Below, piece after piece: positions 4,994-43,420 of a stretch of DNA of 64,000 nt; within the stretch, counting starts at the first letter, position 1, and each line of letters starts with the position of its first letter. Location of the stretch: contig JBJOPW010000005.1 of NCBI GenBank assembly GCA_046050355.1, positions 2,503 to 66,502 of the forward strand, in the 5' to 3' direction. This stretch comes from Candidatus Parcubacteria bacterium. GTDB lineage: Bacteria > Patescibacteriota > Minisyncoccia > Phycocordibacterales > UBA918. The translations under genes and the position numbers were made by a program. The notes beneath the pieces were generated by a model, which was not told where the DNA came from, made no database searches, and worked only from the letters and a program-made list of their open reading frames with translations.

Positions 4994-5110
4994 GTCATAC
5001 CATAAATACTTCTCTCCGTCAAAAGATAGATAGTCGTTTATACCCCTTTAAAGTTCAAAAAACGCAATAGTCGGCCTGGTCTCATCAAGAGAGTGGGTGG
5101 TAACCGAGAG

Positions 5111-5190
5111 ACGTGGACAAAGGCATTAGGGATGGCCTTTGCTCACGGAAATTCGCAATAGTCGGCGCAAGCGCCTCGTTTGCTCATTTC
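5111..5190. repeat. Copy A of an approximately 80-nt intergenic structured repeat (a partial extra core lies at 5062-5078)
   Basis: The sequence ACGTGGACAAAGGCATTAGGGATGGCCTTTGCTCACGGAAATTCGCAATAGTCGGCGCAAGCGCC is about 80% identical to copies at 32975-33036 and 33063-33145. The 7-bp stem CAAAGGC/GCCTTTG covaries between copies. Confidence 0.6.
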
Positions 5191-5199: not shown

Positions 5200-5535
5200 C
5201 TATTTGGCTTTTCCGATAAATAAATTGACTAGACTGACCAGGAGTGTGCCGAGGGCCGCTGGGATAAATCCAGTCACGGTAAAGCCTGGTAATAACCAAG
5301 CCGCGACCATAAACAAGAGAACATTTATAACGAGGATAAATAGACCAAGAGTTAGGAGTGTAATGGGTAAGGTTAAAAACACCAATATCGGTTTAACAAA
5401 ACTATTAAGGACACCTAGAATGACAGCCGCAAACACAGCTGTTTGCCACGTATCAATTGAAAGACCGGGAACGATTTCGTTAGCAATGAGTAGGGCTACT
5501 GCACTGGTGGCAATATAGATAATGATGCGATACAT
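5200..5535 (-). CDS. DUF360 / phage-holin-4_2 (YvlD-like) family membrane protein
   Basis: 111 aa with four predicted TM helices. The sequence pattern (VPGLSIDTW...ILGVLNSFVKPILVFLTLPITLLTLGLFILVINVLL) is typical of YvlD/holin superfamily IV. Confidence 0.6.
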   Translation of the reverse strand: MYRIIIYIATSAVALLIANEIVPGLSIDTWQTAVFAAVILGVLNSFVKPILVFLTLPITLLTLGLFILVINVLLFMVAAWLLPGFTVTGFIPAALGTLLVSLVNLFIGKAK

Positions 5536-25005: not shown

Positions 25006-25035
25006 CGGCTAGGTTTTGCGTAGCAGGTGACGTGA

Positions 25036-25081
25036 AATTATAATTAAAACACCCCTATGAAAGGGTGTTTTAATTATAATT
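25036..25081 (-). terminator. Terminator-like 19-bp inverted repeat (AATTATAATTAAAACACCC...GGGTGTTTTAATTATAATT) downstream of the 25090-26751 gene
   Basis: A perfect long stem with a 7-nt loop lies immediately 3' of the stop codon on the minus strand. The flanking sequence is AT-rich. Confidence 0.5.
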
Positions 25082-25089
25082 TTCTTTAT

Positions 25090-26751
25090 CTACGGAAGTA
25101 TATACTCAATCTTCATATACGGATCAGTACTGGTTCCAGAAGCCTCGGATGATCTGAATCTAAAACCCGAATAGGTATACTGGCCGCCAGATATTTGATC
25201 ATTGCCAGCATCATGACCTTCTCGGAAACAAAGTTTTGTGTGTCCAATTTTGTCTATCCAACTTTTTCCGCTTGAATTAAGGCCGAAATTGACGTAGGCA
25301 TTGGCTGATATATTGTCTATATCAATTGTTGCAGCACCTGCGGTTGGATTATTTAAGGAATCTGAACACTGATCTATATCACCTACTACTATACTGCTCG
25401 CTGAACTCTGCATACCTTGATACAAGCCGATGTACCCAAAAGCATCATTGTCGCCGTTGTGAACTACGTTAGTATATACACTCGTTGACGCGTTGAGGAT
25501 TTCTGCATTGTCTGGAAGAGTCGACGTATCAAACACTAGAAATCCACGATAGATTGAAGTCCAAGAAGTTGGACTGCCAATGAATGAGAGCACCTCGACT
25601 TGAGAACCGGTGTAATCAACGTCTCTACCGGTTGTTGCCATCCGCTGACCGGCCCAATTATTTACTCCCCAAGGAGTGCCAAGGTGTCCGTCACCCGACG
25701 AGCCATAAATGACCGTCTGACTAGGTTGAATTCTAAATGTAGCAGTTGAGGTACTCCAATCACCTTCCACACCAAGCTGATCCCAAAACTTGATACGCCA
25801 ATAGTAATCATGACCAAAGCCAAGTGGACTGCCTGAGTAACTTATTTCTGAAGATTTGGTACCAGCTGATGTACTAGCCATAGTGGTTTTACCACTATCC
25901 CACAATAAAGCACCCGAAAAATTGGTAGATGAACTAACTTGAATTTGATAGTTTACAGCTTGATCAGATGGACTGTCACCGTAGTAAGCACTAAATTCGG
26001 GAGTCTTTTCATTTATTGTTGGATTCGTTTGATTTTCAACCTGAAGATTGTAAGCGGTTGGTTTTAAGGAATACTCAATTGTCATGTATGGATCAGTACT
26101 CGTCCCAGCGGCATCAGCTGATTTGAATCTAATACCTGAAAATGTAAATTGGCCCCCAGAGATTTGATCATTACTGACATCATGTCCTTCCCGTAGGCAA
26201 AGTTTTGTATACCCTGTTTTGTCAATCCAATTTTTTCCAGTTGAATTCAAATTGAAAGTGCCGTAAGTATTAACCGAGAAATTGTCTATATCAATGGTTG
26301 CAGCACCTGCGGTTGGGCTGTTTAGAGAATCTGAGCATTGATCAATGTCACCAACATCGATACTGCTCGCAGAGTTTTGCATTCCCTGATACAAGCCCAT
26401 ATATGCATTAGCATCATTGTCATCGTTATGGACAACATTAGTGTATACGCTTGTTGAAGCATTTAAGATTATAGCGTTGTCTGGTATCACGGAAGTATCA
26501 AACACTAGAAATCCTCGATAAATTGAGGTCCAGGATGATGGGCTGCCGATGAATGAGAGTACCTCGACTTGAGAACCGGTATAATCCACGTCTCTACCGG
26601 TTGTTGCCATCCGCTGCCCCACCCAATCATTGACACCCCAAGGAGTGCCGAGGTGACCATCGCCGGTTGAACCGTAGATGGTTATAGTCTCTGCGCTTAC
26701 ATGATTTATGAATAGAAAGAAAAAACAAAATATTATTAATATATTCTTCAT
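25090..26751 (-). CDS. Secreted protein with two tandem approximately 230-aa homologous domains separated by an FN3-like segment
   Basis: 553 aa. Signal peptide MKNILIIFCFFFLFINHVSA. The domains at about aa 20-230 and 335-553 are about 75-80% identical (TIYGSTGDGHLGTPWGVNDW... twice). The underlying DNA repeats are 26062-26694 and 25093-25749. Confidence 0.7.
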   Translation of the reverse strand: MKNILIIFCFFFLFINHVSAETITIYGSTGDGHLGTPWGVNDWVGQRMATTGRDVDYTGSQVEVLSFIGSPSSWTSIYRGFLVFDTSVIPDNAIILNASTSVYTNVVHNDDNDANAYMGLYQGMQNSASSIDVGDIDQCSDSLNSPTAGAATIDIDNFSVNTYGTFNLNSTGKNWIDKTGYTKLCLREGHDVSNDQISGGQFTFSGIRFKSADAAGTSTDPYMTIEYSLKPTAYNLQVENQTNPTINEKTPEFSAYYGDSPSDQAVNYQIQVSSSTNFSGALLWDSGKTTMASTSAGTKSSEISYSGSPLGFGHDYYWRIKFWDQLGVEGDWSTSTATFRIQPSQTVIYGSSGDGHLGTPWGVNNWAGQRMATTGRDVDYTGSQVEVLSFIGSPTSWTSIYRGFLVFDTSTLPDNAEILNASTSVYTNVVHNGDNDAFGYIGLYQGMQSSASSIVVGDIDQCSDSLNNPTAGAATIDIDNISANAYVNFGLNSSGKSWIDKIGHTKLCFREGHDAGNDQISGGQYTYSGFRFRSSEASGTSTDPYMKIEYILP

Positions 26752-26862
26752 AGGGTAAAGATAATCTAATAACTTTTACATCATTATAATAATCCTATTC
26801 TACCCCCCCCTACATAAATTCCACAATGAATACATCTGTATAGTCAATGAAATCAATATGCA

Positions 26863-27915
26863 TTAATAACTCCGCAAAATCTTTGCAATCAAATTTAAAA
26901 GGCTATGCTTCTGTTGCACCCTATCAGCAGCAACACGGGTAAAATTATTCTTGTCAAACAATGGTCGTTTGGTGAGCTCGAGGATATTGGCAACCAGTGC
27001 CTCACTGTCACCAGGGGCAAAAAAGAGTGGCCAATCGGTCTCTGTACCCATGATGTAGCGGTAGGAAGGGTTTGAGGAAACCACCGGCACCCCACAAGCC
27101 ACCGCTTCGACCAATACTTTATCAAGACTGTTAGTAACACCATCGTGAATAAATATATCGGTGCTAGCCAACAGTGCTGGTAATTCTGCCTGTGACGCTG
27201 GTCCATACCAGACTATATGACCAGAAAGACCAGAAGCAATCACCTGTTGTCGGAGCATTGCCTCGTACTGCTTTTCGCTTGGCGTGGTCGCTGCGCCCAC
27301 AATACGAAATGTAAATGGCACCCGTGCCTCTGCGAGCTTCGCGCAGGCGGCGATGAGTGTCTCAATTTGTTTTGACTGTGCAATGCGACCAACGATACAA
27401 AGGCGCAGGACCGGAGATGCAGTGCGTGGCGTATACACAAAGCGGCTCATATCAATTCCCTGCCCGGTCACCACCACTTTTTTTGACGGTAAACGAAAGC
27501 CTTGTGGCGTCGAGGTAAAGACAATATGCGTCAACTGTGTCGCGACCCGGAGTGATAGGGGCACCGCACCATGTGCATACCACAGACCAATACGCTTGCC
27601 CCAGAGTCGCCAAAGGAGGCCCCCAAGGACAACGTACAGCTGGTTCATATGGACAAACACCCCATCGTATTCGTGTCGAAGCGCAAAGATAGAGCGGTAG
27701 AACCGCCAGAGGTATTTGAGGCGGTTCTCACCGGCTTCTTTACCGAGTGAATGCACAGTGACATTCGCGGGCAGCTGGTACTCGCCTACTGACAGCGCGA
27801 TGACATGTACCTGTTCGCAGTTTTTGGCGAACTCCTCTATCCAACGATGAAAGAAACCAAGAATCGGATGATTGGTGTCGACCACCTGCGTGATAATGAG
27901 AAGTCTTTTTTGCAT
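26863..27915 (-). CDS. Family 4 glycosyltransferase
   Basis: 350 aa with a GT4/GT-B architecture. A -10-like TATAAT sits about 40 nt upstream on the minus strand. Confidence 0.85.
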   Translation of the reverse strand: MQKRLLIITQVVDTNHPILGFFHRWIEEFAKNCEQVHVIALSVGEYQLPANVTVHSLGKEAGENRLKYLWRFYRSIFALRHEYDGVFVHMNQLYVVLGGLLWRLWGKRIGLWYAHGAVPLSLRVATQLTHIVFTSTPQGFRLPSKKVVVTGQGIDMSRFVYTPRTASPVLRLCIVGRIAQSKQIETLIAACAKLAEARVPFTFRIVGAATTPSEKQYEAMLRQQVIASGLSGHIVWYGPASQAELPALLASTDIFIHDGVTNSLDKVLVEAVACGVPVVSSNPSYRYIMGTETDWPLFFAPGDSEALVANILELTKRPLFDKNNFTRVAADRVQQKHSLLNLIAKILRSY

Positions 27916-27968
27916 ACATTAATGTTGACAATGAGTGGCTTTTTGCTATTATATAGATATCACAACAA

Positions 27969-28012
27969 AAAGTCCCCTGCCGGGTTCCGTCCCGTCAGGG
28001 TCCTTTTTATTT
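27969..28012 (-). terminator. Intrinsic terminator (GGACCCTGACGGGACGGAACCCGGCAGGGGAC + TTTTTGTTG) overlapping the NYN gene stop
   Basis: An approximately 10-bp GC stem is followed by a T-run on the minus strand. It is also flanked by an A-run, so it is potentially bidirectional. Confidence 0.6.
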
Positions 28013-28498
28013 TCTCCCAATTTTATTTCGTAAACCATTCATAAACATAATATGTTTCTGTGCAAATCTTTTTAAAAGCGCAGAGTAGCGATGTTGATTA
28101 GGTACCAAAACCGCCAGCAATTTTGATTGAGAAAGCAAGTGTTGTACTAAGCAGTAAAAGTCTCCATCACCCGTAACAATGATTGCCTGATCAAAATTGT
28201 TATATTGCAGCATAGTATGGAGTACTAATTCTGCATCACAATTTCCTTTTGTGGTGCCATTTTTGTACTGAAGCGTGGGTTTAAAAATGCAAACAAACCC
28301 AGCTTCTTGTAATCTGGTATAGACAGCATTGTTACCTTCTATATACCCGATGAACAAAAAGGCTTTTTCTATATTGTATTTTTCTTTGAGGTACACTCTG
28401 AACCTCGCCCAGTCAAGAGACCATCCTTGGGCAGTAATGGCCAAATGTACATTCTGTGCATCAATGAACGCATAGTTATTTTTTGTAACTGATTGCAT
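28007..28498 (-). CDS. NYN-domain (LabA/PIN-like) putative ribonuclease
   Basis: 163 aa. NYN motifs FIDAQNV, GNCDAELVL and IIVTGDGDF. Confidence 0.8.
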   Translation of the reverse strand: MQSVTKNNYAFIDAQNVHLAITAQGWSLDWARFRVYLKEKYNIEKAFLFIGYIEGNNAVYTRLQEAGFVCIFKPTLQYKNGTTKGNCDAELVLHTMLQYNNFDQAIIVTGDGDFYCLVQHLLSQSKLLAVLVPNQHRYSALLKRFAQKHIMFMNGLRNKIGRK

Positions 28499-28511
28499 AT
28501 TCTATATACTA

Positions 28512-29642
28512 TCACTTTGAAGTGGTGATAAGTCGCCAAAGCTCGACAATACGATTGGCGTACGCTTCGTCACTGGTAGCGAGGGTGGAGGCCGTAGTGA
28601 GTCCAGCCGTACTGAGGCGCTGCCGTAGGTCAGCATCGGCCACGAGCCTCGTGAGCGCTGCGACGAGGGCGGCTTCGTCTCGTGGCGGCACCACGAGCGC
28701 TTCTTTATCAGGCAGACAGAGTTCTCCGACACATCCTACGTCAGTCGTCACAATGGCGAGTCCCGCCGCCATCGCTTCGCCGAGGACCATCGCATACCCT
28801 TCGTAGTCGGAAGTGAGGGCAAAGATATCAGCGGCTTTCATCACCGAAGCAATATCGGCCTGCCAGGGATAAAATAGTACCGGAGCAGCGCTTGGCCAAA
28901 GTCTTGCCACTTGTGCACGCAGCGAGGTTTCTTCACTCCCCTCACCGACGAGGATCAACTGACTCTGCGGCTGCTGTTGGTGGACTTGCTTAAAAGCATT
29001 AATAAGCAGGGGGAGATTTTTCTCGCGAGAAAAGCGAGCGACCGCGATAATCGTGACCTTATTCTGGTCAGGCCAAAGTGGTCGGGGGCTCGCGGTTTGA
29101 AAGGCCTCAAGCGACGTCACAATCGGCAGTACCGTGAGACGATGACGAGACACACCACGCGTAATGAGCGAACTAGCGATACGCTTTGAGACCACCCGCA
29201 CACCCGTCGCTCGACGGAGAACAAACAGTCCCAGTCCCGCTCGTAATCGATTCCCCCAGGATTCGAGTCGCCAATAATCTCGACTATAAAAATCGCCGTG
29301 TACTTGGACTTCAAGTGGGACACCCGTGAGTAATCGGACCACGAGTCCAATGAGCCCAAACTCAAACGGGCTCTGGACGGTGAGCAGGGTCGGTCCAGCT
29401 TTTTGGCTCTGCTTGACTTGCCGGAGCGTCGCCAAGAATAGACGCCAGAATCGCAGGAGCGGGCTCGTCGCAGAGATCGGTAGTACCGAGAGTCCAGACA
29501 CTTGTACCGGCACCAATGGTTCTTTGACTGGTATCAGAATCGTGAGCTGCTGTATCATTGTGGCATACGAAAGTTGCCGCGCGTACGGGCGCGAGGTGGT
29601 ATCAAGTATCTTTGTATCGTGACCGAGGGAGACAACGTACAT
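28512..29642 (-). CDS. Family 4 glycosyltransferase
   Basis: 376 aa. GT4 C-terminal region (IFALTSDYEGYAMVLGEAMAAGLAIVTTDVG). Confidence 0.85.
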   Translation of the reverse strand: MYVVSLGHDTKILDTTSRPYARQLSYATMIQQLTILIPVKEPLVPVQVSGLSVLPISATSPLLRFWRLFLATLRQVKQSQKAGPTLLTVQSPFEFGLIGLVVRLLTGVPLEVQVHGDFYSRDYWRLESWGNRLRAGLGLFVLRRATGVRVVSKRIASSLITRGVSRHRLTVLPIVTSLEAFQTASPRPLWPDQNKVTIIAVARFSREKNLPLLINAFKQVHQQQPQSQLILVGEGSEETSLRAQVARLWPSAAPVLFYPWQADIASVMKAADIFALTSDYEGYAMVLGEAMAAGLAIVTTDVGCVGELCLPDKEALVVPPRDEAALVAALTRLVADADLRQRLSTAGLTTASTLATSDEAYANRIVELWRLITTSK

Positions 29643-29647
29643 ACTGG

Positions 29648-30775
29648 TTATGCCTTAGTACTAACGACCGCTTCTAAAAGTTGTTTGATGGATGGAATGG
29701 CGTCCGCGGCCCCGAACTGCGCCGCTTTGGCTTTGCCGGCCGTGACGAGTTGTTCCCGTAGTGTACGGTCGGTCAGTATGCGAGTGATGGTCTGATCGAG
29801 TGCCAAGGTATCATCAACCGGCACGAGGAGTCCTTCGACGCCATCCGTGATCAGTTCGGGGTTGCCGCCGACCGGTGTCGTGACGACCGGAGCCCCGAGC
29901 GCCAGCGCTTCAATGAGGTGGTGCGAGAGTCCTTCGTACGCTGTATTAAGCACAAAGACATCGGCGGCAGTAACATAGCGAAAGACATCATGAAATGACA
30001 ATGCCCCCACCATCGTCACCGACGACTCGAGTCCGAGGGTTTTAATTTTTGCTTCAAGCGGTACTCGCTCCGGCCCATCACCACCAATCACGAGTCTGGT
30101 CGCTTCGCCTCGTGCTTTGCGCAGAAGCATCACGTCAAGGAGCGCACTCATACCTTTCCATGGTGTTAGGCGACTAATACTGACGATGGTTTGATCGGCA
30201 AAACCTAATTGAGCTCGCAGGTCATTGCGACTGTCTGTCAGCGGCGCTACCGTGTGTGCACTATAGATGACATGGAGTCGCTCTCCGGACACTCCCCAGG
30301 TTGCGACAATTTCTTTGAGGTACTGACTTGGAACCACAACTGCAGCGGCTCGCTTCACAACCGTTTGTTGGATACCAGCGAGCAAGCGCACCGGTAGTCG
30401 CTCTGCACGCGGATCTTTGGTGTACGCATCAAGAGTCTTTTCTACACCAAAGCGTTGTACCCCCTGCTCCCAAGCGTAGTCACCACCGAGGCGGACCACC
30501 AGTGGTAGCCCGCGGAGAAATGACACTATCGCAGCTGGTACACCGACACTGACGGGATCAAGGGCATAGACCAAAGATACTCCCCGACTAGCTCGCCAGA
30601 GCCGCCAGGTATAAGCGAGGTGCCGAAAGACTTTTGGGACAGTCCTGACCTCTCGGTACGGCACCACCGTGACCGCCATTCCTTCCGCTGGTAGTCTTGT
30701 GGCGATCATCTCCGCATAGCGAGCCGGCCCACCAATATCAGGAGGATATAAGCCCGCAGCCAAAAGTACCTTCAT
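29648..30775 (-). CDS. Family 4 glycosyltransferase
   Basis: 375 aa. GT4 motifs (VFVLNTAYEGLSHHLIEALALGAPVVTTPVGG). Confidence 0.85.
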   Translation of the reverse strand: MKVLLAAGLYPPDIGGPARYAEMIATRLPAEGMAVTVVPYREVRTVPKVFRHLAYTWRLWRASRGVSLVYALDPVSVGVPAAIVSFLRGLPLVVRLGGDYAWEQGVQRFGVEKTLDAYTKDPRAERLPVRLLAGIQQTVVKRAAAVVVPSQYLKEIVATWGVSGERLHVIYSAHTVAPLTDSRNDLRAQLGFADQTIVSISRLTPWKGMSALLDVMLLRKARGEATRLVIGGDGPERVPLEAKIKTLGLESSVTMVGALSFHDVFRYVTAADVFVLNTAYEGLSHHLIEALALGAPVVTTPVGGNPELITDGVEGLLVPVDDTLALDQTITRILTDRTLREQLVTAGKAKAAQFGAADAIPSIKQLLEAVVSTKA

Positions 30776-30790
30776 AATAATCTGAGTATA

Positions 30791-32032
30791 CTAGTCAGCC
30801 CACAGAGGCGCAAACACCTCATCATGCATGCGTTTCGTGATTAGATTCCAGTCATAATCACGCACTGCCATCGCTTTGGCGGTCGCGACGACGTTAGCGA
30901 CGAACTCCGGGTTCGCCATAATCTCGCGCACAACAGTAGCAATATCCTCAGGACTATCTTTACGCACCACAAAGCCAGTTGTTTCTTTATCTGGATTGAG
31001 ATGGCGATCAAACAGAAAATCGGCAATCCCACCCTCCCTCGTCGCGATAACCGGTAGCTCAGCGGCCATGGCCTCCACAAATGAGTTCCCCATCCCCTCA
31101 CTCCGTGACGGACGGATAAAGATATCGCAGGCTTTGAGGTAACTTGGCATCACGTCATGCCCAATCTGGCCGCGGAGCAAGACCCGGTCGCTAAGCTTCA
31201 ATTCGGCAATAAGCGCTTTGAGTTTCTCCTCGTCTGGCCCAAGCCCGAACACCACAAACTTCACGTTTTTCGGCAGGCTCGGTAGTGCCTTAATGACATC
31301 ATCCACGGCGTTTTTGTGCACGAGTCGTGAGGTAGTCACCAGCGCCACGTCACCCGTAACAAGACCAAGTTCCGCACGTATCACCGACCGCTTCTCCGGT
31401 GAGAGTGGTACCATAAACTTCTTCGTATCGACGGCATTTGGGATCACCACTGACTTACCTGTAAAACCCATCCTGGTCGCCCAGGCCTGGAGAAATGTGG
31501 AAATTGATTGAATGACATCAGCTCGGGAGAAAGCTTCCGGGAAGCGCTTACCAAACACCCGCATTTTTTGTTCAATGTACTCTGGCGGATCGCCTTCTTG
31601 GAGCGTCAGTACATACGGTACATGAGGGAACCGTTTTTTGAACATACCGGCCGGCACGCCACAGCTATGGGCCATCATCGCCCAAATGGCATCAAAGTGA
31701 TACTGCTTATGAAGCCGCTGCGCGGCGTAGTAAGCCGAGTACTGGTAGATAATTTTATTGAGATGGAGCGGGAACTTCCGCAAATCACCCATAGTAGGAT
31801 TCTTCTTCACGAGCCCAATACGGTGCACCACCACCTTCCCAATCATCTCCGTTTTTGGCAAGGTACTATCGTAGCGGTTACAAAGCACATGAAACTCATA
31901 CTCCTCATCCGGCAGTCTATCGGTGATTTCTTTGATGGCGACCTCCGCTCCGCCAATATGTTTGGGATAATACCCCAGACTAAAGATGAGTATGCGCTTC
32001 ATGTTGATCAACAATAGTTTTAATATAATCAC
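30791..32032 (-). CDS. Family 4 glycosyltransferase (likely start at internal Met near 32002)
   Basis: 413 aa. KRILIFSLGYYPKHIGGAEV, and the C-terminal IRPSRSEGMGNSFVEAMAAELPVIATREGG. Confidence 0.85.
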   Translation of the reverse strand: MIILKLLLINMKRILIFSLGYYPKHIGGAEVAIKEITDRLPDEEYEFHVLCNRYDSTLPKTEMIGKVVVHRIGLVKKNPTMGDLRKFPLHLNKIIYQYSAYYAAQRLHKQYHFDAIWAMMAHSCGVPAGMFKKRFPHVPYVLTLQEGDPPEYIEQKMRVFGKRFPEAFSRADVIQSISTFLQAWATRMGFTGKSVVIPNAVDTKKFMVPLSPEKRSVIRAELGLVTGDVALVTTSRLVHKNAVDDVIKALPSLPKNVKFVVFGLGPDEEKLKALIAELKLSDRVLLRGQIGHDVMPSYLKACDIFIRPSRSEGMGNSFVEAMAAELPVIATREGGIADFLFDRHLNPDKETTGFVVRKDSPEDIATVVREIMANPEFVANVVATAKAMAVRDYDWNLITKRMHDEVFAPLWAD

Positions 32033-32858
32033 TGAGCAGATGGGTAGCCTGCCATCCCAACTCTAAACGACTGCGTCGAGTATCAGCTTCTGAATACATG
32101 CGATTGCCCGGTCTTTCTTCTAGCCATTCTATCGGTGCACCAAACAGCTGTGCCACCGCTTCAATCGAGTAGGATAGTTCGTGACCGAGACCATACTCGT
32201 CACCCTCGCCGTGCTCGCCCACTCGTACCAACCCTTCAATGATATCAAAAACATGGGTAAAGTTGCGTTTTTGGGTACCTGGTCGCCTGACTGGCAGTGA
32301 CAAGCCGTGAATATACCGGTCTTTAAAAATACCAATGACGGTACCTGAATTCGCATCCGAGCGCTCTCGAGGACCATACACATTATAGAAATAAGTGATG
32401 GCGTAGGAAATACCAAACCACTCACCATACCGTCGGACCAAATCAGTGTTTGAGGCTTTCGTCCACGCATACGGACTCTGGTCACGACCCATACCACCAT
32501 CAGCAAATTTCGTTGATGAACCAGCGTAAATAAGTTTTGGGTTTTTTTGACGCACGAACTCAAGGACCGCTGCGGTTCCTTGTTGATTAAAATCAAGTAC
32601 GGTAGCCACGTCAGCAAAACTCTGTTCTACCCGGGCATATTCACCGAGATGGAAGACCATATCGGGTGCCTCTGGTATATGTTTCGCAATATCTTTTGTG
32701 TGACCTGTTCGGTATGTCACACCAGCCACATGATTACTCACTGAACCGGTAAAATAGTTATCGAGAGAAATTACCTGGTGACCTTCCTGTACCAAACGTT
32801 CACACAGATGTGAACCAACAAAGCCTGCCCCGCCAGTAACCACAATGAGCTTTGACAT
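31980..32858 (-). CDS. NAD-dependent epimerase/dehydratase (UDP-sugar 4-epimerase/decarboxylase-like SDR)
   Basis: 292 aa. Rossmann motif VVTGGAGFVGSHLCERL. Catalytic YxxxK within YAWTKASNTDLVRRY. Confidence 0.85.
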   Translation of the reverse strand: MSKLIVVTGGAGFVGSHLCERLVQEGHQVISLDNYFTGSVSNHVAGVTYRTGHTKDIAKHIPEAPDMVFHLGEYARVEQSFADVATVLDFNQQGTAAVLEFVRQKNPKLIYAGSSTKFADGGMGRDQSPYAWTKASNTDLVRRYGEWFGISYAITYFYNVYGPRERSDANSGTVIGIFKDRYIHGLSLPVRRPGTQKRNFTHVFDIIEGLVRVGEHGEGDEYGLGHELSYSIEAVAQLFGAPIEWLEERPGNRMYSEADTRRSRLELGWQATHLLSDYIKTIVDQHEAHTHL

Positions 32859-32974
32859 ATGCGCTATAGTACCAGAAATTGAACAGAATAGTTACAGCGA
32901 AACAGGTAGAATTCCTAAATGAATTCCGCCCGTTTTATTAACTGTAAGAGTAAAACTAAAAAGAAAGTGAGTCG

Positions 32975-33145
32975 GCGTGGACAAAGCCATTATAAATAGG
33001 CTTTGCTCGCGAAAATTCGCCATAGTCGGCCTGCGGAAAAGTGATTCAAGAAACAGAATGGTCGTGCGCGGATGAGGGCATTAAGGATAGCCCTCACTCG
33101 CGAAAATTCGCCATAGTCGGCCTGCGGCCTCGTTGGCTCATTTTA
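32975..33145. repeat. Copies B (32975-33036) and C (33063-33145) of the approximately 80-nt structured repeat, in tandem
   Basis: They share the conserved core GCTCRCGRAAATTCGCMATAGTCGGC with copy A at 5111-5190. The hairpin stems differ but remain fully paired (CAAAGCC/GGCTTTG and TGAGGGC/GCCCTCA). Confidence 0.6.
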
Positions 33146-33394
33146 CCCTTCGCAAGCGACGCAGACGTTCCCACCGATGTGTACCCGTGGTGCCGCTGGT
33201 GCGTTACTCACGACAGTTGGTAAATCGAAGTCAAAATTTTGTTCGTTGTTTCCCATATGAGTCTATTGTAACGCGTCAAAAATCCGCACAAACTCACTAT
33301 CGCGCAAACCTGTGTATAGCTGAGTGTCACACATTGATTTCACCCACAAAAGAACCTAGGTTGCGCTCTTTGGCAAGGGTGAAGCAACTCACCC

Positions 33395-35230
33395 TCAAAA
33401 AGGCGACTTTACTTTTGCGTCATTGTTTAAGATTTTTTTGAGTACTTTAATATCTGGATCAGCGAGGTCAGTACCGTACGCACCGTCAGATGTCTTTGGA
33501 ACTGTTGGTGTCGGCGCACTTACAGCCGAAACCTCTGTTGGTATGGTTGTTTTAGTATCAAGAACACTACCGAGGGCTGACCGCAAGGCCGTGCGATGAT
33601 CACCGGTTGAAACTGGGGTTGATTCATGCTTTGTAGCCTGAGACGGTTCTTCGCTCTTTTTTGTGTCTTCCACTTTGGCGGTGGCGGCAATTCGAGCCAG
33701 TACCGCTTTGAGTCCATCGGTAGTTGGAGCTGGTGGAATCGCTGGGGGTTTTGGTTTGGGCGTGGTGTTTGGTTGTGTTGAACGGTTAACTGCCTTTGTC
33801 TTGGTAGCAGATTTATGCTCGGTTCGGGTCGGGGGAGCTATTTCATTACTCTTTGGTACTGCTGGTGTCACTACTACCACTGGTTTATTATCTGCTTTTT
33901 GTCCTTCGGCCTTCGGTGGCTTGGGTGGTGGCTCAACCGGCGCATGGAGATCAACCACCAATTGCTCAATCTGAGCACGTGGTTTGGTATAGTTCGCCCG
34001 ACTCGCGGCGAGCACCATGTCTCGGCAAGACACACGCGGTGGCGCAATTGGTGGTAATGTAATCGCCGAAAACGGTTGCGAGCCGATACCGTCAATCATT
34101 AGTGTAAGATAAATTTGAGCAAAGCCAAGATTAACAAGATCAGCCGCTAAAAAACGTGGCGTGAAGATGGTCTCAAGCACTTCAGCATCAAACGGGCCCA
34201 CGCGAAAGGCTACCGTTGTCCCTACGTTACCAAACACCGCGTTACGTACATCCTCTTCCATTTGTTCGATATACTGGTGCGCAATAATGAGGTTGAGGTG
34301 ATATTTGCGTGCTTCAGAGAGGATATTCGCAAAGGTGGCATTGGCAAAACTCTGAAACTCATCAACATAAAAGTAGAAGTTCGGCATCTGCTTCATTTGT
34401 TCTACTGGCAAATCGGCACGACTCATCGCCGCCAAGTAGATACGGGTTGTCAACATAGAACCAAGGAGATTTGCATTACTCTCTCCCACCAACCCTTTCG
34501 AGAGGTTCATGATGAGAATTTTTTTCTCATCCATAATTTTTCGAATATCAAAACTGGAATGCGGCTGCCCGATAATATTACGAATGAGAGGATTCCCCGT
34601 GAACTGTCCAATCTTGTTTTGAATAGCGGGCAAAGCTTCCGCTGCAAAACGGTCAGTATAGGCAGCAAACTCTTCAGTCCAGAAGGCTTTAACAGCAGGA
34701 TCTTTCACATAATCAACCACGCGATTACGGAAGTGTTTGTCTGAGAACAAGCGATTGACCGACAGCAGTGTCGTGTCAGGGTACTCAATGAGAGCGAGAA
34801 GAGCATTCGTGAGAATATACTCCATACGAGCACTCCACGCATCAACCCAAATCTTCTTGAAGGTAGACATGAGTCCTGAGACGACCAAGTGCCGTTTGTC
34901 CGGCCCGACATCTTCCATGACGTTAAATGAGACAGGATGATCAAGGTCAAATGGCGCGAAGTAAACCACATCATTGACACGATGCTCGGGTACGTATTGA
35001 AGCAGTGTCTCAGCGGCCGATCCATGTGGGTCAATAAAAGCCATACCTTCACCGTTTTGGATGTCTTGCACCGCCATATTCTCTAAGAGCGTCGACTTCC
35101 CCATACCAGTCTTACCAATGACATACATGTGTCGTTGTCGGTCTTTGGCCTTGATACCAAACGGTATTTCTCGACCACGAGCATCGGTCTTGGCAAAGAA
35201 AGTAATTTTTTCTGGGTCGAACTGCGTCAT
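33395..35230 (-). CDS. Soluble TraG/VirD4/TrwB-like P-loop ATPase with long Pro/Thr/Lys-rich disordered C-terminal tail
   Basis: 611 aa. Walker A YVIGKTGMGKSTLLEN and Walker B FYVDEF. The coupling-protein-like block LNLIIAHQYIEQ...VFGNVGTTVAFRVGPFDAEVL is present. There is no N-terminal TM. Confidence 0.55.
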   Translation of the reverse strand: MTQFDPEKITFFAKTDARGREIPFGIKAKDRQRHMYVIGKTGMGKSTLLENMAVQDIQNGEGMAFIDPHGSAAETLLQYVPEHRVNDVVYFAPFDLDHPVSFNVMEDVGPDKRHLVVSGLMSTFKKIWVDAWSARMEYILTNALLALIEYPDTTLLSVNRLFSDKHFRNRVVDYVKDPAVKAFWTEEFAAYTDRFAAEALPAIQNKIGQFTGNPLIRNIIGQPHSSFDIRKIMDEKKILIMNLSKGLVGESNANLLGSMLTTRIYLAAMSRADLPVEQMKQMPNFYFYVDEFQSFANATFANILSEARKYHLNLIIAHQYIEQMEEDVRNAVFGNVGTTVAFRVGPFDAEVLETIFTPRFLAADLVNLGFAQIYLTLMIDGIGSQPFSAITLPPIAPPRVSCRDMVLAASRANYTKPRAQIEQLVVDLHAPVEPPPKPPKAEGQKADNKPVVVVTPAVPKSNEIAPPTRTEHKSATKTKAVNRSTQPNTTPKPKPPAIPPAPTTDGLKAVLARIAATAKVEDTKKSEEPSQATKHESTPVSTGDHRTALRSALGSVLDTKTTIPTEVSAVSAPTPTVPKTSDGAYGTDLADPDIKVLKKILNNDAKVKSPF

Positions 35231-35311
35231 AATGCCATCATTATACTATATTAGCTGCTTCATTTCTGGTCCGCACCAACGCTCGTAACACGAATCGCCA
35301 CTAGGCACCAA

Positions 35312-36862
35312 TTACTCGGCGTCTGATTCTTCTCCAAAGCGCTCCTTGGCATACTGCAAGAGTGCCGTCACATCCGCATCACGACTTTTTGATCCGAGAA
35401 TAATAATAGCGACAACTCGTTCTTCTCCTTTAACGCTGAGCTGATGAAGCGTGACTGATGTCTGACCAGCGGCGGTAGTTTCACCAATCTTACCTCCCAT
35501 GAAGTTATCGAGACCGTCAACGGTATTAAAGTTGGAAAGCCCACTAAATTCACCCGTTATGTAGATATCCGGCAGCTTGGCGCCAGTACTCATATCAATT
35601 ATAAAGTGCCGTTTTTTGTATATGTATTGTATCAGGCGCAGAAGATCGCCAACCGAAGAAACATTGCCGTTATCGAGCCCGGAAGGATCCGTAAAATGAG
35701 TTTGTGTCATCCCGAGCGATTTGGCCCGGTCATTCATATAGTGAATAAATTGTGTTCTGCCCACTTCCGCCGCAATCACCTCCGCTGCTTCATTTGAGGA
35801 CTCAAGCAATAATAACTCCAGGAGTGAATAAAATGATACTGAGCTGCGCTCACCAAGACGTGGGATGAGTGACTGTACAAACGTCGGTTCACTAATAGCA
35901 ACACGGGTATCAAGGTTGATATACTCAGCCGCCACCACCGCTGTCATCAGTTTTGTTAACGACGCGATCGGTACTGCGTCATCAAGATCACGCGCAGCCA
36001 AGACAGTACTCGATTCAACATCCGCGATCAGATAGTGCGGTGTTGCTAGTTCAGGTACTTTTGGCTCATACAGGAAGCTGTCTCGATCCACTGCCCGCTC
36101 ATAGACCAAAACCGGTGTATTGCGTGTGACGGTGGTATACAATGTCTCGGCATCAGCAGTACTCAGTTCTATGCCACCTTGGGCTGTACTGGTGGGAACA
36201 TCACCCGTTTCATAATACGGAGTACCATGGATATAAAAGTTGCCTTGGAAAGCCATGCTAAATGGCAAGTATACTTGTCCAAATGAAGCAAAGTGGGATC
36301 GTTGTTTTTGTTCAATTTCATAGAGACCAGCCGGAGTCTCCCAGAAAGTACCTTCTTCGCCTTTTTTTACAATCGGGAACTCAAAACGAAGTACTCCTGC
36401 TTCAAAATACCGCAGGCGCATTGCTGCCAAATCAGCTTCGATAAATGTTCGTTCATCTTCAATAAACGCATCCCTGGCCGCCGCAAAAAAATCCGGCTCA
36501 GAGAATGCCACCTCAATACCATAAGAAAGTGGTGTTGTTGCTTTAGTGTACGGATGCTCAATCACCACGGGCGCAGTTCCTATCTTGATACTAGAAAAAG
36601 CGTTGGCAAGGAGTGTCTGCCCACGATCCACCGCCAAAGGAGCAACGAAGACCGCCCCATAGACACAGAGAACCAGTGTGGCGATAAGCACAAACGTTCG
36701 TGAAGCAATCAGCAGCCGAGTCGGTCGAGGTGGCAATCCCACCGTTGACGGATGAAACGTGAGGGTTTTACGCGGAATAAGCGTGCCCTTCGTAACGGTC
36801 GGCTCATCATCAGCAAATGAAATCGCATAAAAACGGCGAGGTGTTTCCTCTTCGTTGTACAT
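35312..36862 (-). CDS. Fusion of an L,D-transpeptidase-like domain and a D-alanyl-D-alanine carboxypeptidase (S11)
   Basis: 516 aa. N-terminal TM. A YkuD-like segment FYIHGTPYYE...AQGGIEL has Gly where the catalytic Cys is expected. The C-terminal domain has S11 motifs ASLTKLMTA (SxxK), SSN and KIGET. Confidence 0.65.
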   Translation of the reverse strand: MYNEEETPRRFYAISFADDEPTVTKGTLIPRKTLTFHPSTVGLPPRPTRLLIASRTFVLIATLVLCVYGAVFVAPLAVDRGQTLLANAFSSIKIGTAPVVIEHPYTKATTPLSYGIEVAFSEPDFFAAARDAFIEDERTFIEADLAAMRLRYFEAGVLRFEFPIVKKGEEGTFWETPAGLYEIEQKQRSHFASFGQVYLPFSMAFQGNFYIHGTPYYETGDVPTSTAQGGIELSTADAETLYTTVTRNTPVLVYERAVDRDSFLYEPKVPELATPHYLIADVESSTVLAARDLDDAVPIASLTKLMTAVVAAEYINLDTRVAISEPTFVQSLIPRLGERSSVSFYSLLELLLLESSNEAAEVIAAEVGRTQFIHYMNDRAKSLGMTQTHFTDPSGLDNGNVSSVGDLLRLIQYIYKKRHFIIDMSTGAKLPDIYITGEFSGLSNFNTVDGLDNFMGGKIGETTAAGQTSVTLHQLSVKGEERVVAIIILGSKSRDADVTALLQYAKERFGEESDAE

Positions 36863-36910
36863 ACCATTATTGTACCGTATCGAACTACACTATGGCGGGT
36901 TTTCTATCCC

Positions 36911-38215
36911 CTATTCTGGCTGCAGGGCGGCTTCGGTATACCGATTACTTGGTGCCCAGATCATCCACGAGTCGACCCCAGCATCATAGCTGGCTTGGAT
37001 TTGGGCTCGAACGTCAGCCGCATCGTAGTCTCCCCCATAATCAAAGTCTTGAATCCAGGTACGAAGCCGATTGCCATCGTAGGCTGGCTTTTGGTACAGC
37101 GCTGGAGTACTCGTGCCGAGGCGAGTATGAAGAAATCCAGCCATCGGTGTGGTAGACGCCCGCATGCGATCGGCACCACTTTTCATGGCGTGATAGACCA
37201 CTTTGTAGGGATAGTCATTTGGATTACCGAGTCCTAAAAAACTCTTTGGGTAGTGGGATGGATACACCATTGGTGCAATGGCGTCAAAGTATGGTGCCGC
37301 CCGCTCTTGCACTTGACCAATGGAAAGATCGTCGTAGTTAGTTGTTGTCATGCCAAAGAGATCGGCTGAGGTATACGGTGTACTCGTCGCTCGTCCGGTA
37401 TGTTCATGACGTACCGCCACAAACTTTTCCGGTTTATCAAGTTCAGCATTAAGGTAGCGGAAGAAGGCTTCGAGATTTGCTTGTTTATCGTGTGGCCAGT
37501 CACTAACCGCTGTATGTTCAAAATATGTATCGACCATGTTGCCATCGGACGGATACCGCACGTAGTCATAATTAAGTTCATCAAAGCCCAGGTTGTACGC
37601 ATCAACCGACAGGTCAACGACCATATCCCAATATTCTTTAGCTGCGACATCAATAAAGGCCAACCCTTTATGGTCATGCCACACACTCGTCCTATCAGCC
37701 CGCTTCACCGCCAAATGTGGTGATTGTTCAGCCCGAAACGGATCTTGAAAGACCGTCACGCGCCCAATGACGTATATGTTCGCATCATGGAGCGTCGTAA
37801 TAAACTCCTTCATATCACGAGCCCCACAACGCGAGGCCTCCCACGCCGGTTTCCAAACCGGTGCCGTCGGTGGAAACGATAACGTACCTGAATAATCCTT
37901 GATATCAATAACAATCGCATTAACTTCAGTTCGCTTTGCGAGCGCCAAGAGTTCGTTACGAAACGAGGGGGTTCCCGCTACACACGAACTCATATAAATT
38001 GCCTTGAGCGACTCGGGGAGTGGTACGTGTTTCACTACGGGTCGGGTATCGGCAATGGTCGTACCTCTAACATCTGCTTTGGCGGTACTTGAGGCCACCA
38101 GTGTACTTGAGGCTGCCGACTGATACGAAACGGCAAATAGGTTTGGTAACAGTAACATCCATCCAGCCGTCACGAGTAGGAAGGCAGATGCTATGGCCGT
38201 ATACCAGTAGTGCAT
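36911..38215 (-). CDS. Putative glycoside hydrolase-like TIM-barrel protein (GHL/DUF4015-like), secreted or membrane-anchored
   Basis: 434 aa with an N-terminal TM/signal. The sequence has no recognisable catalytic motifs, so the family assignment is tentative. Confidence 0.45.
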   Translation of the reverse strand: MHYWYTAIASAFLLVTAGWMLLLPNLFAVSYQSAASSTLVASSTAKADVRGTTIADTRPVVKHVPLPESLKAIYMSSCVAGTPSFRNELLALAKRTEVNAIVIDIKDYSGTLSFPPTAPVWKPAWEASRCGARDMKEFITTLHDANIYVIGRVTVFQDPFRAEQSPHLAVKRADRTSVWHDHKGLAFIDVAAKEYWDMVVDLSVDAYNLGFDELNYDYVRYPSDGNMVDTYFEHTAVSDWPHDKQANLEAFFRYLNAELDKPEKFVAVRHEHTGRATSTPYTSADLFGMTTTNYDDLSIGQVQERAAPYFDAIAPMVYPSHYPKSFLGLGNPNDYPYKVVYHAMKSGADRMRASTTPMAGFLHTRLGTSTPALYQKPAYDGNRLRTWIQDFDYGGDYDAADVRAQIQASYDAGVDSWMIWAPSNRYTEAALQPE

Positions 38216-38227
38216 TATGTATATAGT

Positions 38228-38464
38228 TTACCGCGTTGTATCAAAAAGTGGTTCAGTGGTCTCCACAAAGGTCTCAGCAGTGCGCACCACGCCATCGTGC
38301 TCGAGAGTAGCAAGGTACTGCGATCGGCGGATACTATACCCAATCCCGACAAATATCACACCCATCACCGCAAAAAGAATTTGTTTCCATACCATCGGTA
38401 TCCCGAGTGATGGCAAAACAATCGTTACTAACCCTAACAGAAATACCAGTGTGCCTTTAGTCAT
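38228..38464 (-). CDS. Small two-TM membrane protein (78 aa)
   Basis: ORF track. There are two clear hydrophobic helices, and the gene is co-directional and tightly spaced with the upstream gene. Confidence 0.4.
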   Translation of the reverse strand: MTKGTLVFLLGLVTIVLPSLGIPMVWKQILFAVMGVIFVGIGYSIRRSQYLATLEHDGVVRTAETFVETTEPLFDTTR

Positions 38465-38526
38465 TACAGAAGAGTATACCGTAGAGTCAGCTACGATACA
38501 AAAATAACCCTAAACTGTGGAAAACT

Positions 38527-39213
38527 TTAGTTGGCTGACTGAGTCAAGATAAGTACAAACTCCCCTTTTTGCTTGACTGGGGTATTGGTGAGTGTGGCCA
38601 AAATCTCACCCGGTGTCCCAACGAGCATTTCTTCATGGAACTTTGTCAGTTCTCGCCCAAGGTGGAGCGTGGCGTGCGGGTACGCGGTCGTGAGGGTTTC
38701 AAGTGTCTTGACGATACGATGTGTCGCTTCGAGAAACACGACCGGATGATCGTAGAGTTCGAGGTCGGCAAAAAATGTATCGCGTCCTTTTTTACTCGGC
38801 ACAAAACCCAAAAAACTAAATTGATTACCATTGATACCCGCAATCGAGATAGCAGCCGTAATCGCCGACGCTCCCGGTATCGCATCAATGCGGCAGCCAG
38901 CGGCCCTGGTCAGCCGCACGAGGATCACCCCCGGGTCTGAGACGCCCGGGGTGCCAGCGTCTGAAACAAGGGCAATTGACTGTCCAGCTATCAGGTCAGC
39001 CACAATTGCCTCGTGGGCGGCGACACTCGCATGCGCATCGTAGCGCTTGAGTTTGGCCTTGACGCCATGATGCTTCAGGAGATTCCCCGTCGTCCGGGTA
39101 TCCTCACAAAGGATATAGTCCGCCTCACGAAAGATCCGCAGAGCGCGCAGGGTAATATCCTCCATATTCCCAATGGGGGTAGCGACCACTGATAATGTAC
39201 CAGTTTTTTGCAT
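38527..39213 (-). CDS. rsmI: 16S rRNA (cytidine1402-2'-O)-methyltransferase
   Basis: RsmI N-terminus LSVVATPIGNMEDITLRALRIFREADYILCEDTR. The start is assigned to the internal Met (MQKTG) rather than the ORF-track start at 39294. Confidence 0.85.
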   Translation of the reverse strand: MQKTGTLSVVATPIGNMEDITLRALRIFREADYILCEDTRTTGNLLKHHGVKAKLKRYDAHASVAAHEAIVADLIAGQSIALVSDAGTPGVSDPGVILVRLTRAAGCRIDAIPGASAITAAISIAGINGNQFSFLGFVPSKKGRDTFFADLELYDHPVVFLEATHRIVKTLETLTTAYPHATLHLGRELTKFHEEMLVGTPGEILATLTNTPVKQKGEFVLILTQSAN

Positions 39214-39296
39214 AGGTAGTTGCCATACCGTACCACGATTCACAAAAAAGGAAAGTGGCAACAACAAGGGGCAGGCATTCTCAGCCTGCCCCACTT

Positions 39297-39797
39297 TTAT
39301 TTCTGCAAAGGGTCTTTGTACCGCTCCGTATCGACTCCCTGCCTCTGCAAGGCTACTTCCCCATAAAGGTCAAGGAGATACCACGCGCCTGCAAGAACTT
39401 GCCTCAGTCTCACGATCACACTCGAGAACCACGTACCTTCAGCCGTAAATAGCGGCTCAGGGTAGTATTCTATAGAACAGTATTTACAATCGTGGAACTC
39501 CAGCACAGTGCCGCCACGATACCACTGACCATAGTACCAATCGCAAGCCAGCATGAGAGCTAACTTGTGACGGGCAATAAAATGAATATGGAGATTGGTA
39601 AAATCGTTATCAAAAAACAGTTTACCCCCATGGTTTTTTACATACCATGCCTTGATTTCATTTATGATATGCCACATCGATCGCAAAGACCACTGAGCAA
39701 TCGGCAAATTCACTACTTCATCGTGTACAGTGACAGACCGTGTGATGAAGTTCACCGTCACCAGCACGTTCGAGGTATTGGTATCAACCTTGCTCAT
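39297..39797 (-). CDS. Hypothetical protein (possible degenerate HIT-like motif LHIHFIARH)
   Basis: 166 aa ORF; no confident family. Confidence 0.45.
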   Translation of the reverse strand: MSKVDTNTSNVLVTVNFITRSVTVHDEVVNLPIAQWSLRSMWHIINEIKAWYVKNHGGKLFFDNDFTNLHIHFIARHKLALMLACDWYYGQWYRGGTVLEFHDCKYCSIEYYPEPLFTAEGTWFSSVIVRLRQVLAGAWYLLDLYGEVALQRQGVDTERYKDPLQK

Positions 39798-39854
39798 TTT
39801 CCGCCCCTTTACAAAAACCGCCTGCTGGCGCCCATCTAAAAATACCGAGAAATA

Positions 39855-41156: not shown

Positions 41157-41179
41157 AGTGTCATATTATAGCATATATG

Positions 41180-41518
41180 CTATATATCATCATATACCTT
41201 CTTAATATAGAAACGTAAGGTGCGTTCTTTTAATAATTCTTCGTTGGTCAGTTCAGGATCATCCATGATAACCCAAGCGAGCGCTTCCGCTTTAGTATAA
41301 CCAGCGCATTTCAATAACAAAAAAGTTTCTATAGCCCAAGATTCTGAGCCGTATTCCGCTTTTATCATTGCTGCAACACGCTTGTCATTTACTTCGATGT
41401 CTTCGTTACATATTACCTCTTCAAGCTCCCCAATCATTGCCATTGCTTGCTGACAAATAGTTTGCTCATCAAAACCATCAGCTTGTAATTCTGTCCGGTA
41501 GTCGGTTAAAACCCCCAC
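41180..41518 (-). CDS. Small acidic hypothetical protein inserted between murC and murD
   Basis: 112 aa ORF; no recognisable domain. Confidence 0.45.
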   Translation of the reverse strand: MGVLTDYRTELQADGFDEQTICQQAMAMIGELEEVICNEDIEVNDKRVAAMIKAEYGSESWAIETFLLLKCAGYTKAEALAWVIMDDPELTNEELLKERTLRFYIKKVYDDI

Positions 41519-41611
41519 TGGATTACTAGCAAATTCTAATGCAAAAAAATACCCTGACTCACGGTCGATAAGAAATTTTTGCTCAGCACTTACAAAGTTG
41601 ATTTGAAGTAT

Positions 41612-43006: not shown

Positions 43007-43078
43007 ACGAATATCCACTAGAGTACTCAAAAAAATGAAGGGTGTCGAGCATGTGCTCAACCCCTTCAGTAGCGCTTA

Positions 43079-43372: not shown

Positions 43373-43420
43373 GTAAGAACTTCCAAATAGACAAAAAAGT
43401 AACTATGATACACTAGGAGT

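Follow-up and report, generated by a model that had tools for sequence, protein, structure and literature searches.

A small two-hairpin repeat of CPR/Patescibacteria that carries its own base-paired stop codon

The CPR/Patescibacteria have tiny, dense genomes from which very few non-coding elements have been described. What, then, is the intergenic element that recurs in a 64,000-nt stretch of one such genome (the window), whose Obg protein is filed by NCBI under a 'Candidatus Parcubacteria' MAG? An earlier note had described three copies, A, B and C, each with a hairpin beside a conserved core that it took to be single-stranded, and had proposed a structured motif, with a DNA-level repeat or MITE as the fallback. 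Intergenic stretches of 100-400 nt with about 40 invariant nucleotides and 24 compensated pairs would mark either a lineage-specific RNA device or a successful selfish element, and the latter would be notable because CPR genomes are thought to be nearly free of selfish elements.

Anatomy, relatives and strand

The three copies lie where the earlier note had placed them, with stems and loops exactly as it quoted them (Table 1). The 18-mer AAATTCGCMATAGTCGGC has three exact occurrences in the window and one with two mismatches at 5058-5075, against a chance expectation of 0.11, and four matches were reached in 0 of 100 shuffles. The fourth occurrence lies in a remnant (5057-5078) that is the rest of a second unit, 91 nt from A; as this matches the 91-nt period from B to C, both window loci are short tandem arrays. 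Copy B had been counted as one of the three copies, and its sequence and 7-bp stem are indeed present, but it is the 5'-truncated second unit of its array and lacks the plus-strand 3' half of the second hairpin. With filters off, a covariance model run over the whole 64 kb gave no other match in the window above about 18 bits.

Table 1. Features of the two element-bearing loci in the window (CM, covariance model; H1 and H2, first and second hairpin)
Feature	Position	Strand	Basis	Details
obg promoter	4994..5022	minus		TTGACG 5022-5017, 17 nt, TATGAC 4999-4994
Spacer (UCUCUCGGUUACC...CUCUCUUGAU) and decayed second unit after A	5026..5111	minus	boundary by L079 alignment	contains remnant GGCCGACUAUUGCG and UUUUUU at 5057-5078
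Copy A	5112-5166, tail to about 5190		sequence	
Unit A, H2	5112..5147	minus	fold and covariation	the earlier note's hairpin, on the opposite strand; CGUG/CACG, A.C and G.U, 7-bp covarying stem, 10-nt loop CAUCCCUAAU
Unit A, H1	5148..5190	minus	RNA fold, consensus structure, CM match 5102-5193 at 100.9 bits	in order: (G)AAAU, tandem GA.GA, GCAA-UUGC, internal loop ACGA-GACUA, GGCGC-UU-GCGCC tip
Phage_holin_4_2 family membrane protein, upstream of unit A	5200..5535	minus	Pfam	ancestral stop TAA at 5197-5199, directly before GAAAUGAGC (L079 alignment)
NAD-dependent epimerase, downstream of B/C array	31980..32858	minus		own -10 box TACTAT, 7 nt before ATG
Copy B	32976-33030		sequence	
Unit B, degenerate second unit	32966..33036	minus	CM, 43 bits	keeps only 3' two-thirds of H1 (33012-33036) and an intact H2 (32976-33011, loop UAUUUAUAAU)
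Class II spacer CACGACCAUUCUGUUUCUUGAAUCACUUUU	33037..33066	minus		diverged homologue of H1 5' strand; conserved in L050, L057, L068, L073
Copy C	33067-33121, tail to about 33147		sequence	
Unit C, H2	33067..33102	minus		stem UGAGGGC/GCCCUCA, loop UAUCCUUAAU
Unit C, H1	33103..33145	minus	fold, consensus; CM match 33057-33147 at 105 bits	holds the UAA stop (33143-33145) of the 37-aa ORF, whose bases 2 and 3 pair with AUUUU
37-aa ORF upstream of C, MGNNEQNFDFDLPTVVSNAPAAPRVHIGGNVCVACEG	33143-33256	minus		between the VirD4-like gene and C

On the minus strand of the window, a unit is about 83-91 nt long and consists of two adjacent hairpins, H1 and then H2 without a linker, followed by a pyrimidine-rich spacer. 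H1 reads 5'-U-R-A-A-A-U-G-A-G-C-M-A-A-C-G-A-G-G-C(C), a tip loop, and (G)G-C-C-G-A-C-U-A-U-K-G-C-G-A-A-U-U-U-Y; it is built from AAAAU/AUUUU, tandem G.A/A.G, GCMA/UKGC, a 4x5 internal loop (ACGA/GACUA) and a GC tip, and the first unit of every array begins at URAAAUGAGC. H2 is made of CGYG, A, G, one strand of a 7-10-bp stem, a loop of about 10 nt (UAUYCCUAAU), the other strand, U, C and CRCG. The roughly 40 invariant positions (20-22 first units) fall nearly all in H1, whose sequence is almost invariant, and H2 conserves only its pairing and the pyrimidine-rich loop. The earlier anatomy thus needs partial revision: the conserved stretch is real, but rather than a single-stranded core it is the 3' strand of H1 plus the foot of H2. 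Its CRCG pairs with the CGYG upstream of the 7-bp stem, and GAAAU..GCMA pairs with UKGC..AUUUC past the GC tip hairpin, with M and K covarying.

Two variants of this plan were seen. An H2 with an expanded loop, in which UUCCU pairs with an inserted AGGAA (UUCCU-UAC-AGGAA), occurs at two different loci, L039 2400-2643 and L072 2740-2800 (sense on the minus strand). A 56-nt insertion between H1 and H2 (AAUGACCUAAUUUUUAACGACUGYAAGGAGUAUAAAAAUGGAAAUACCCUUGUGGUG) is found in L051 3899-4045, L081 1-100 and L031 1-60; it accompanies H1 at the obg locus in other MAGs and is therefore itself a repeated piece.

How widespread is the element? A scan with the 18-mer, one genome per species, gave 49 matches, of which 41 are chance matches and 8 have the surrounding element; the latter genomes are CPR/Patescibacteria MAGs labelled Saccharibacteria, Parcubacteria or Paceibacteria, and such MAG taxonomy labels are unreliable. 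Freeing two covarying positions gave a refined pattern that found 25 metagenome loci, all genuine, and no copies in viral contigs (IMG/VR). Exact-core matches number one or two per MAG. A covariance model built from 20 units, as the earlier note had proposed, matched 56 times in the collected loci, including many weaker tandem units, and the added units keep the stem pairing, with covariation; first units scored 83-110 bits, scores that are secure even though the E-values of this short-calibrated model are rough. The family collected here numbers 43 units; its 29 sources all belong to the CPR/Patescibacteria and bear Saccharibacteria or Parcubacteria labels. At gathering thresholds, Rfam 15 found only the 16S and two tRNAs in the whole window, and an E-value scan of 32900-33300 gave only chance-level matches (Pistol at 17.5 bits where 34.5 are needed, sca_ncR26 at 19.5 bits where 37 are needed). 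Literature searches by organism, repeat terms and core sequence found no description of the element. The family is thus a previously undescribed CPR two-hairpin repeat of about 90 nt, with no match in Rfam, IMG/VR or the searchable literature.

The covariance model can be used for annotating the element, whose AUG and stop codons can mislead gene callers. The element also lies at the contig end in L002, L023, L031 and L081 and so seems to interrupt metagenome assemblies; a fifth contig, L084, in which no element was found, begins 20 nt upstream of obg.

Base pairing is supported by covariation. RNAalifold, run on 22 first units, gave 24 pairs, 10 of them with compensatory double changes, and across 43 model-aligned units standard pairs fill 95.8% of cells, with double-sided changes in 19 of the 24 pairs. 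The alignment was fitted to the model and the copies are related, but the signal is still far outside both controls: 0 of 500 column shuffles reached the observed values, and sliding the partners by 1-3 columns left 30-48% pairing. For the 7-bp stem, whose covariation the earlier note had read from three copies, double-sided changes occur in every pair among the 43 related units, which supports selection for pairing. The proposal of a structured RNA or DNA motif is likewise supported, the element being a structured motif of single-stranded nucleic acid.

On which strand does it act? Read on the minus strand, the units contain 30 G.U against 9 A.C cells, a count that excludes one invariant G.U mirrored by an A.C, and further G.U pairs occur in the tip helices of L031, L039, L061 and L070 and inside H2 of L059. 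Moreover, the upstream gene is co-directional with the element in 27 of 36 matches, across at least 16 distinct genomic contexts. Because G.U exceeds A.C and orientation follows the upstream gene, the minus strand is favoured, and the plus strand of the window, on which the element had been read, is probably its antisense. The excess of G.U over A.C is, however, equally expected for single-stranded DNA, and the fold is significant with RNA and, equally, with DNA parameters, so that sequence does not decide between RNA and single-stranded DNA as the selected form.

Stop codons and gene context

Long co-directional upstream ORFs all have their stop within -11 to +1 of AUGAGC (as far as the UGA inside AUGAGC), and most of these stops are the URA at -4. 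Bases 2 and 3 of the stop codon are paired to the end of H1, whose sequence changes along with them: a stop end UAA goes with the partner end AUUUU, UGA with AUUUC, UAG with AUUCU, and GUAAUG with AUUAC. The stop codon belongs to the element, because the aligned units of L069, after uvrD, and of L072, after the gene of an ABC ATPase, match at 100% and their identity begins exactly at TGAAATGAGCC. In L054, the TGA of the element ends a DacB-like ORF after ...ERFGS; the 80%-identical DacB orthologue of the window has no element and ends in ...ERFGEESDAE. Where a long ORF is absent, mini-ORFs (AUG AAR stop, or AUG UAA) stand ahead of the element (L031, L050, L059). We also considered and rejected a coding element, as the ORF from the invariant AUGAGC shifts frame with the length of the tip loop (11, 12 or 9 nt) and runs for anything between 2 and more than 60 codons.

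The genes upstream are unrelated to one another (RecG, UvrD, SMC, class I aldolase, glutamate dehydrogenase, PilC, an ABC ATPase and permease, DacB/YkuD, a dockerin-repeat surface protein, the holin-family protein, the 37-aa peptide), and the downstream genes are equally diverse (obg, epimerase, pilin, NusG, others). Shine-Dalgarno motifs are almost absent upstream of about 54 long window ORFs (e.g., 35231-35260, 4994-5022, 32859-32880), and a -10 box (TGGTATAAT-like; TACAAT, TATACT, TAGACT) stands 6-9 nt before the ATG in window genes; this gives most genes the look of leaderless ones with individual promoters. The obg promoter, the box of which is also conserved in L031, L079, L081 and L075, would feed a leaderless start at the second ATG (4987), which is probably the true start of obg. 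According to the L079 alignment, the array of A ends at about 5026, immediately ahead of this promoter, and therefore lies outside the obg transcript. Since arrays in general sit between a stop codon and the next promoter, they are not 5' leaders, and their sense strand can only be the 3' UTR of the upstream gene. Co-transcription as this 3' UTR would be the best reading.

Two observations touch these features. The 3' tail of the 16S rRNA (46939-46990, minus strand) reads ...GGAUUAAUUCCAAU and not the canonical ...GGAUCACCUCCUUA or ...CCUCCUUA, the anti-Shine-Dalgarno core CCUCC being replaced by AUUCC. The 37-aa ORF upstream of C has a -10 box of its own (TACAAT) and a GG motif followed by a Cys-rich tail, and its product may be a small secreted or modified peptide; its C-terminus, VCTACEG*, also precedes the element in L063.

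Several familiar classes of RNA fit poorly. A riboswitch or 5' leader of the downstream gene was rejected, as the downstream genes are unrelated and each is preceded, 6-9 nt ahead of its ATG, by its own -10 box. A self-cleaving ribozyme was likewise rejected, the Pistol match being at chance level and the hammerhead and hairpin cores misfitting by eye. For a kink-turn, loop E or 11-nt receptor in the internal loops of H1, the tandem G.A pairs are plausible, but there are additional nucleotides in the strands, and UAUGG, with its variable K, is not kept. Mimicry of the 16S tail by the H2 loop (UAAUUCCAAU vs UAUUCCUAAU) comes down to a common 5-mer and is not significant. As for intrinsic terminators, H1 abuts H2, and H2 is followed by UCUCUC or CACGACC, with no U-tract; a terminator scan of 25000-44000, a range that leaves unit A outside, listed neither H1 nor H2 of B and C. 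The order in L051 is stop, H1, 56-nt insertion, H2, spacer, canonical intrinsic terminator and secE promoter, and a strong intrinsic terminator precedes the element in three Parcubacteria-type loci (L019, L036, L070), and a canonical one in L050. The element itself is thus not a terminator, because in L051 the terminator follows it and in L019, L036 and L070 precedes it.

Arrays and turnover between loci

Arrays of two to four units are common (L066, L067, L061, L073, L057, L059, L056, L072), with all units of one array in direct orientation. Only the unit adjoining the stop codon is intact. Later units retain GACUAUKGCGAAUUUYCGYGAG and an H2, with the 5' strand of H1 replaced by a diverged spacer, and gather mismatches and insertions. 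Between L069 and L072, the full identity of unit 1 falls to about 85% in the spacer and to about 60% in unit 2, which argues that renewal acts on the first unit.

The nearest relative of a unit is usually found at a non-orthologous locus: window C, at the peptide locus, is 96% identical to L050 at the obg locus, and window A, at the obg locus, is 94% identical to L041 at the recG locus. The SecA-holin-obg-gatB block is syntenic in all relatives fetched. Its holin-obg spacer is occupied in the window by a sense array, in L031, L039, L061, L050, L059 and L081 by inverted arrays belonging to several subtypes, and in L075-L080, L082, L083 and L085 by no element. Among the empty sites is that of a relative with 87% Obg identity, one of the closest two, whose spacer is unrelated in sequence; L081, the other of the pair, has an inverted copy. 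About 130 kb of close relatives gave a single match. L054 has the element at a second site, between DacB and VirD4, which is vacant in the window. Polymorphism in presence or absence at orthologous sites, together with greater similarity among paralogous than orthologous copies, is the pattern of a mobile repeat. In this respect the DNA-level repeat or MITE that the earlier note kept in reserve matches the data, in presence, orientation and non-orthologous similarity alike, but the pairing of the stem is under selection as well.

The ends are less clear-cut. At the 5' side the unit has a fixed edge, TGAAATGAGCC, but decayed units obscure where it stops on the 3' side, and the sole inverted match, a weak one, links the 5' end with the class II spacer. 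A candidate TGA duplication between L054 and the window is not robust, and comparison of filled with empty sites yielded no clean target-site duplication, the flanks being too diverged; at the obg site, intergenic DNA was replaced rather than simply interrupted. Neither a transposase nor terminal inverted repeats were found, and the neighbours examined (the 64-kb window and loci up to 21 kb) included no Y1 transposase or integrase.

What kind of element

It is, in our judgement, an evenly balanced question whether the family should be regarded as a small, dispersed, structured repeat, specific to CPR/Patescibacteria and of the same general kind as REP/BIME, BOX, ERIC, Correia and bcr1. With the REP/BIME elements of Enterobacteria and Pseudomonas, which are associated with RAYT, it shares an extragenic, structured and clustered nature, a patchy distribution between strains, compensatory upkeep of hairpins and transcription in 3' UTRs; REPs there stabilise the upstream mRNA and, within about 15 nt of the stop codon, reportedly affect translation. 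However, REPs are single palindromes of 20-40 nt with a 5' GTAG, present in hundreds of copies and in alternating orientation within BIMEs, whereas here a 90-nt unit of two dissimilar hairpins with a built-in stop forms direct tandem arrays at only two loci in 64 kb, GUAG is sporadic in some tip loops and second units, and no RAYT was seen. The BOX elements of Streptococcus pneumoniae (boxA-boxB(n)-boxC) are likewise modular, with a unique 5' module and variable tandem internal modules, intergenic, predicted to fold stably and co-transcribed with their neighbours; they differ in sequence and host phylum, have a distinct 3' module and show no tie to stop codons. Elements such as bcr1 (Bacillus cereus group), ERIC/IRU and Correia (Neisseria), of about 100-155 nt, share compensatory RNA structure, a location in 3' UTRs or between cistrons and presence/absence polymorphism between strains, but are bounded by terminal inverted repeats and duplicate defined targets (TTTAT, TA), features not demonstrable here, and lack stop-codon anchoring and polar arrays. 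What is new in the present family is its sequence and host range, the built-in base-paired stop, the direct tandem arrays with polar decay, and an invariant H1 beside a structure-only H2. Anchoring on a paired, covarying stop codon is unusual among bacterial repeats, and it ties the end of translation to the structure of the 3' UTR in a concrete way that experiments can address, in a lineage whose mRNAs appear to be translated leaderless. Against the repeat reading count the low copy number, unlike that of classical REP/MITE families, and the conservation of H1 across MAGs of different class labels, which is greater than usual for a purely selfish repeat.

Read together, these sequence comparisons most likely describe a mobile or converting element that is at the same time a tolerated or useful 3'-UTR structure bringing its own stop. 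Such an element would land at a gene's stop codon or a few nucleotides past it, and its own URA would usually serve as the stop, paired at the foot of H1. It would then be transcribed as the 3' UTR of upstream genes that are mostly leaderless and have their own promoters. Arrays would grow by the addition or renewal of a unit at the stop-codon end, older downstream units decaying, and copies would move or homogenise between loci, being gained, lost and inverted among close relatives. The element would be tolerated and perhaps even useful, an effect on the host that we infer from its supplying a stop and a stable 3' structure that may buffer the mRNA end and separate the next promoter. The sequence of H1 would be kept because some machinery, as we presume, recognises it, either for propagation or as an RNA-binding target. 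Intact inverted copies and homogenisation across loci favour a constraint intrinsic to propagation, and strict stop-codon anchoring and the gene-sense bias favour relevance at the RNA level. Mobility we infer from the distribution, and gene conversion could give the same pattern. Against a pure 3'-UTR role, first units at the obg site are intact when inverted, with no upstream ORF feeding them, and the strong intrinsic terminators ahead of the element in the three Parcubacteria-type loci count against such a role as well.

Two alternatives are less probable. A purely DNA-level mobile element, whose single-stranded hairpins would serve a recombinase (HUH/Y1 as in IS200/IS605-PATE or REP/RAYT, tyrosine as in attC) with no role for RNA, is a possible but doubtful explanation. 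It would accommodate the equally significant folds with DNA parameters, the turnover, inversion and cross-locus identity, and the integrity of inverted copies without an upstream ORF; the sense strand of co-directional genes is the lagging-strand template, which fits both the orientation and the bias of G.T over A.C. Integron attC sites, too, are imperfect hairpins directly after, and often overlapping, the stop of the preceding cassette ORF, with a covarying variable stem and one functional strand. Yet H1 and H2 are dissimilar, unlike the similar hairpins at the ends of IS200/IS605; GTAG is not conserved, and the consensus holds no R''/R' core sites (RYYYAAC/GTTRRRY), the nearest, GTTGGCT, being antisense and partnerless. 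Tandem units have no ORFs between them, the flanking genes, housekeeping genes with their own promoters, are not cassettes, and those scanned or read include no Y1 transposase or integrase. A host-functional, cis-acting RNA that works through translation termination seems unlikely, slightly more so than the DNA-level element. With the stop and AUG locked in H1, the ribosome would melt H1 and free the GACUAUKGCGAAUUU strand, and the element would set termination and re-initiation behaviour or the fate of the mRNA in a mostly leaderless lineage with an altered anti-Shine-Dalgarno tail. The covarying stop codon inside a helix, the invariant AUGAGC, a stop-plus-AUG spacing like that of coupled genes, the mini-ORFs where a long ORF is absent, the leaderless look of the genome with AUUCC instead of CCUCC in its 16S tail, and conservation of H1 beyond structural need all speak for it. 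However, the ORF that starts at the AUG conserves neither frame nor length nor peptide, the upstream genes have no common function, terminators precede the element in L019, L036 and L070, and the element is dispensable, given its absence across some 130 kb of close relatives and at the corresponding site of a relative with 87% Obg identity.

The remaining readings are less probable still. One, which we regard as improbable, is a self-renewing module homing to stop codons by polar addition through H1-recognising machinery, possibly with an RNA or single-stranded DNA intermediate, that is also a termination-coupled RNA device. The proposed addition of units on the stop-codon side may be likened to the polar addition side at a CRISPR leader, and, if true, the module would place a termination-coupled device in a lineage without Shine-Dalgarno initiation. 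CRISPR or ToxI-like arrays themselves would consist of near-identical repeats with unique spacers, or of 34-49-nt repeats upstream of a toxin gene; here, the units of 83-91 nt diverge along the array, their variable part is self-complementary, and the genes downstream are obg, epimerase, pilin, NusG and others. A transcription terminator or Rho-loading module peculiar to the lineage and placed where transcription units end is very unlikely. It would suit the location between stop codon and next promoter, the intrinsic terminator that element-less relatives have at the holin-obg site, and spacers that are C-rich and G-poor with U-rich runs, but no U-tract abuts either hairpin, canonical terminators stand after the element in L051 and before it in L019, L036, L070 and L050, only two loci occur in 64 kb, and a terminator does not need an invariant 40-nt sequence. 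To a small RNA from the plus strand, with GGA/AGGA hairpin loops acting as a CsrB/RsmZ-like sponge for a CsrA-type protein or as a Shine-Dalgarno mimic, we give hardly any credence. Its attraction lies in the tandem hairpins, in the bidirectional terminator that follows in that orientation in L036, and in the loops AUUAGGGAUG, AUUAAGGAUA and AUUAGGAAUA, which we take to resemble the CsrA consensus. GGA is, however, missing from several loops (AUUAUAAAUA in B, AUUAUGAAUA in L053), no plus-strand promoter for the element was found, G.U vs A.C favours the other strand, orientation follows the upstream ORF and its stop codon, and the organism appears not to use Shine-Dalgarno pairing.

Some minor observations concern other parts of the window. 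Between 44590 and 48397, the 16S gene has no 23S gene following it in the window; downstream of it lie tRNA-Leu(CAG), a tandem repeat of 157 nt x 2 (44838-45151, 97% identical) and tRNA-Ile(GAU), and a 34-nt piece overlapping tRNA-Leu is duplicated at 45364-45397. At 8212-8347, just downstream of a 343-aa ORF (8559-9590), there are CCTTCTT-type repeats with a 12-nt period, which on the minus strand would encode a lysine-rich low-complexity peptide. Finally, a 553-aa ORF (25090-26751) contains a 300-nt internal direct repeat (25102-25401 and 26071-26370, 78% identity), which suggests a duplicated domain.
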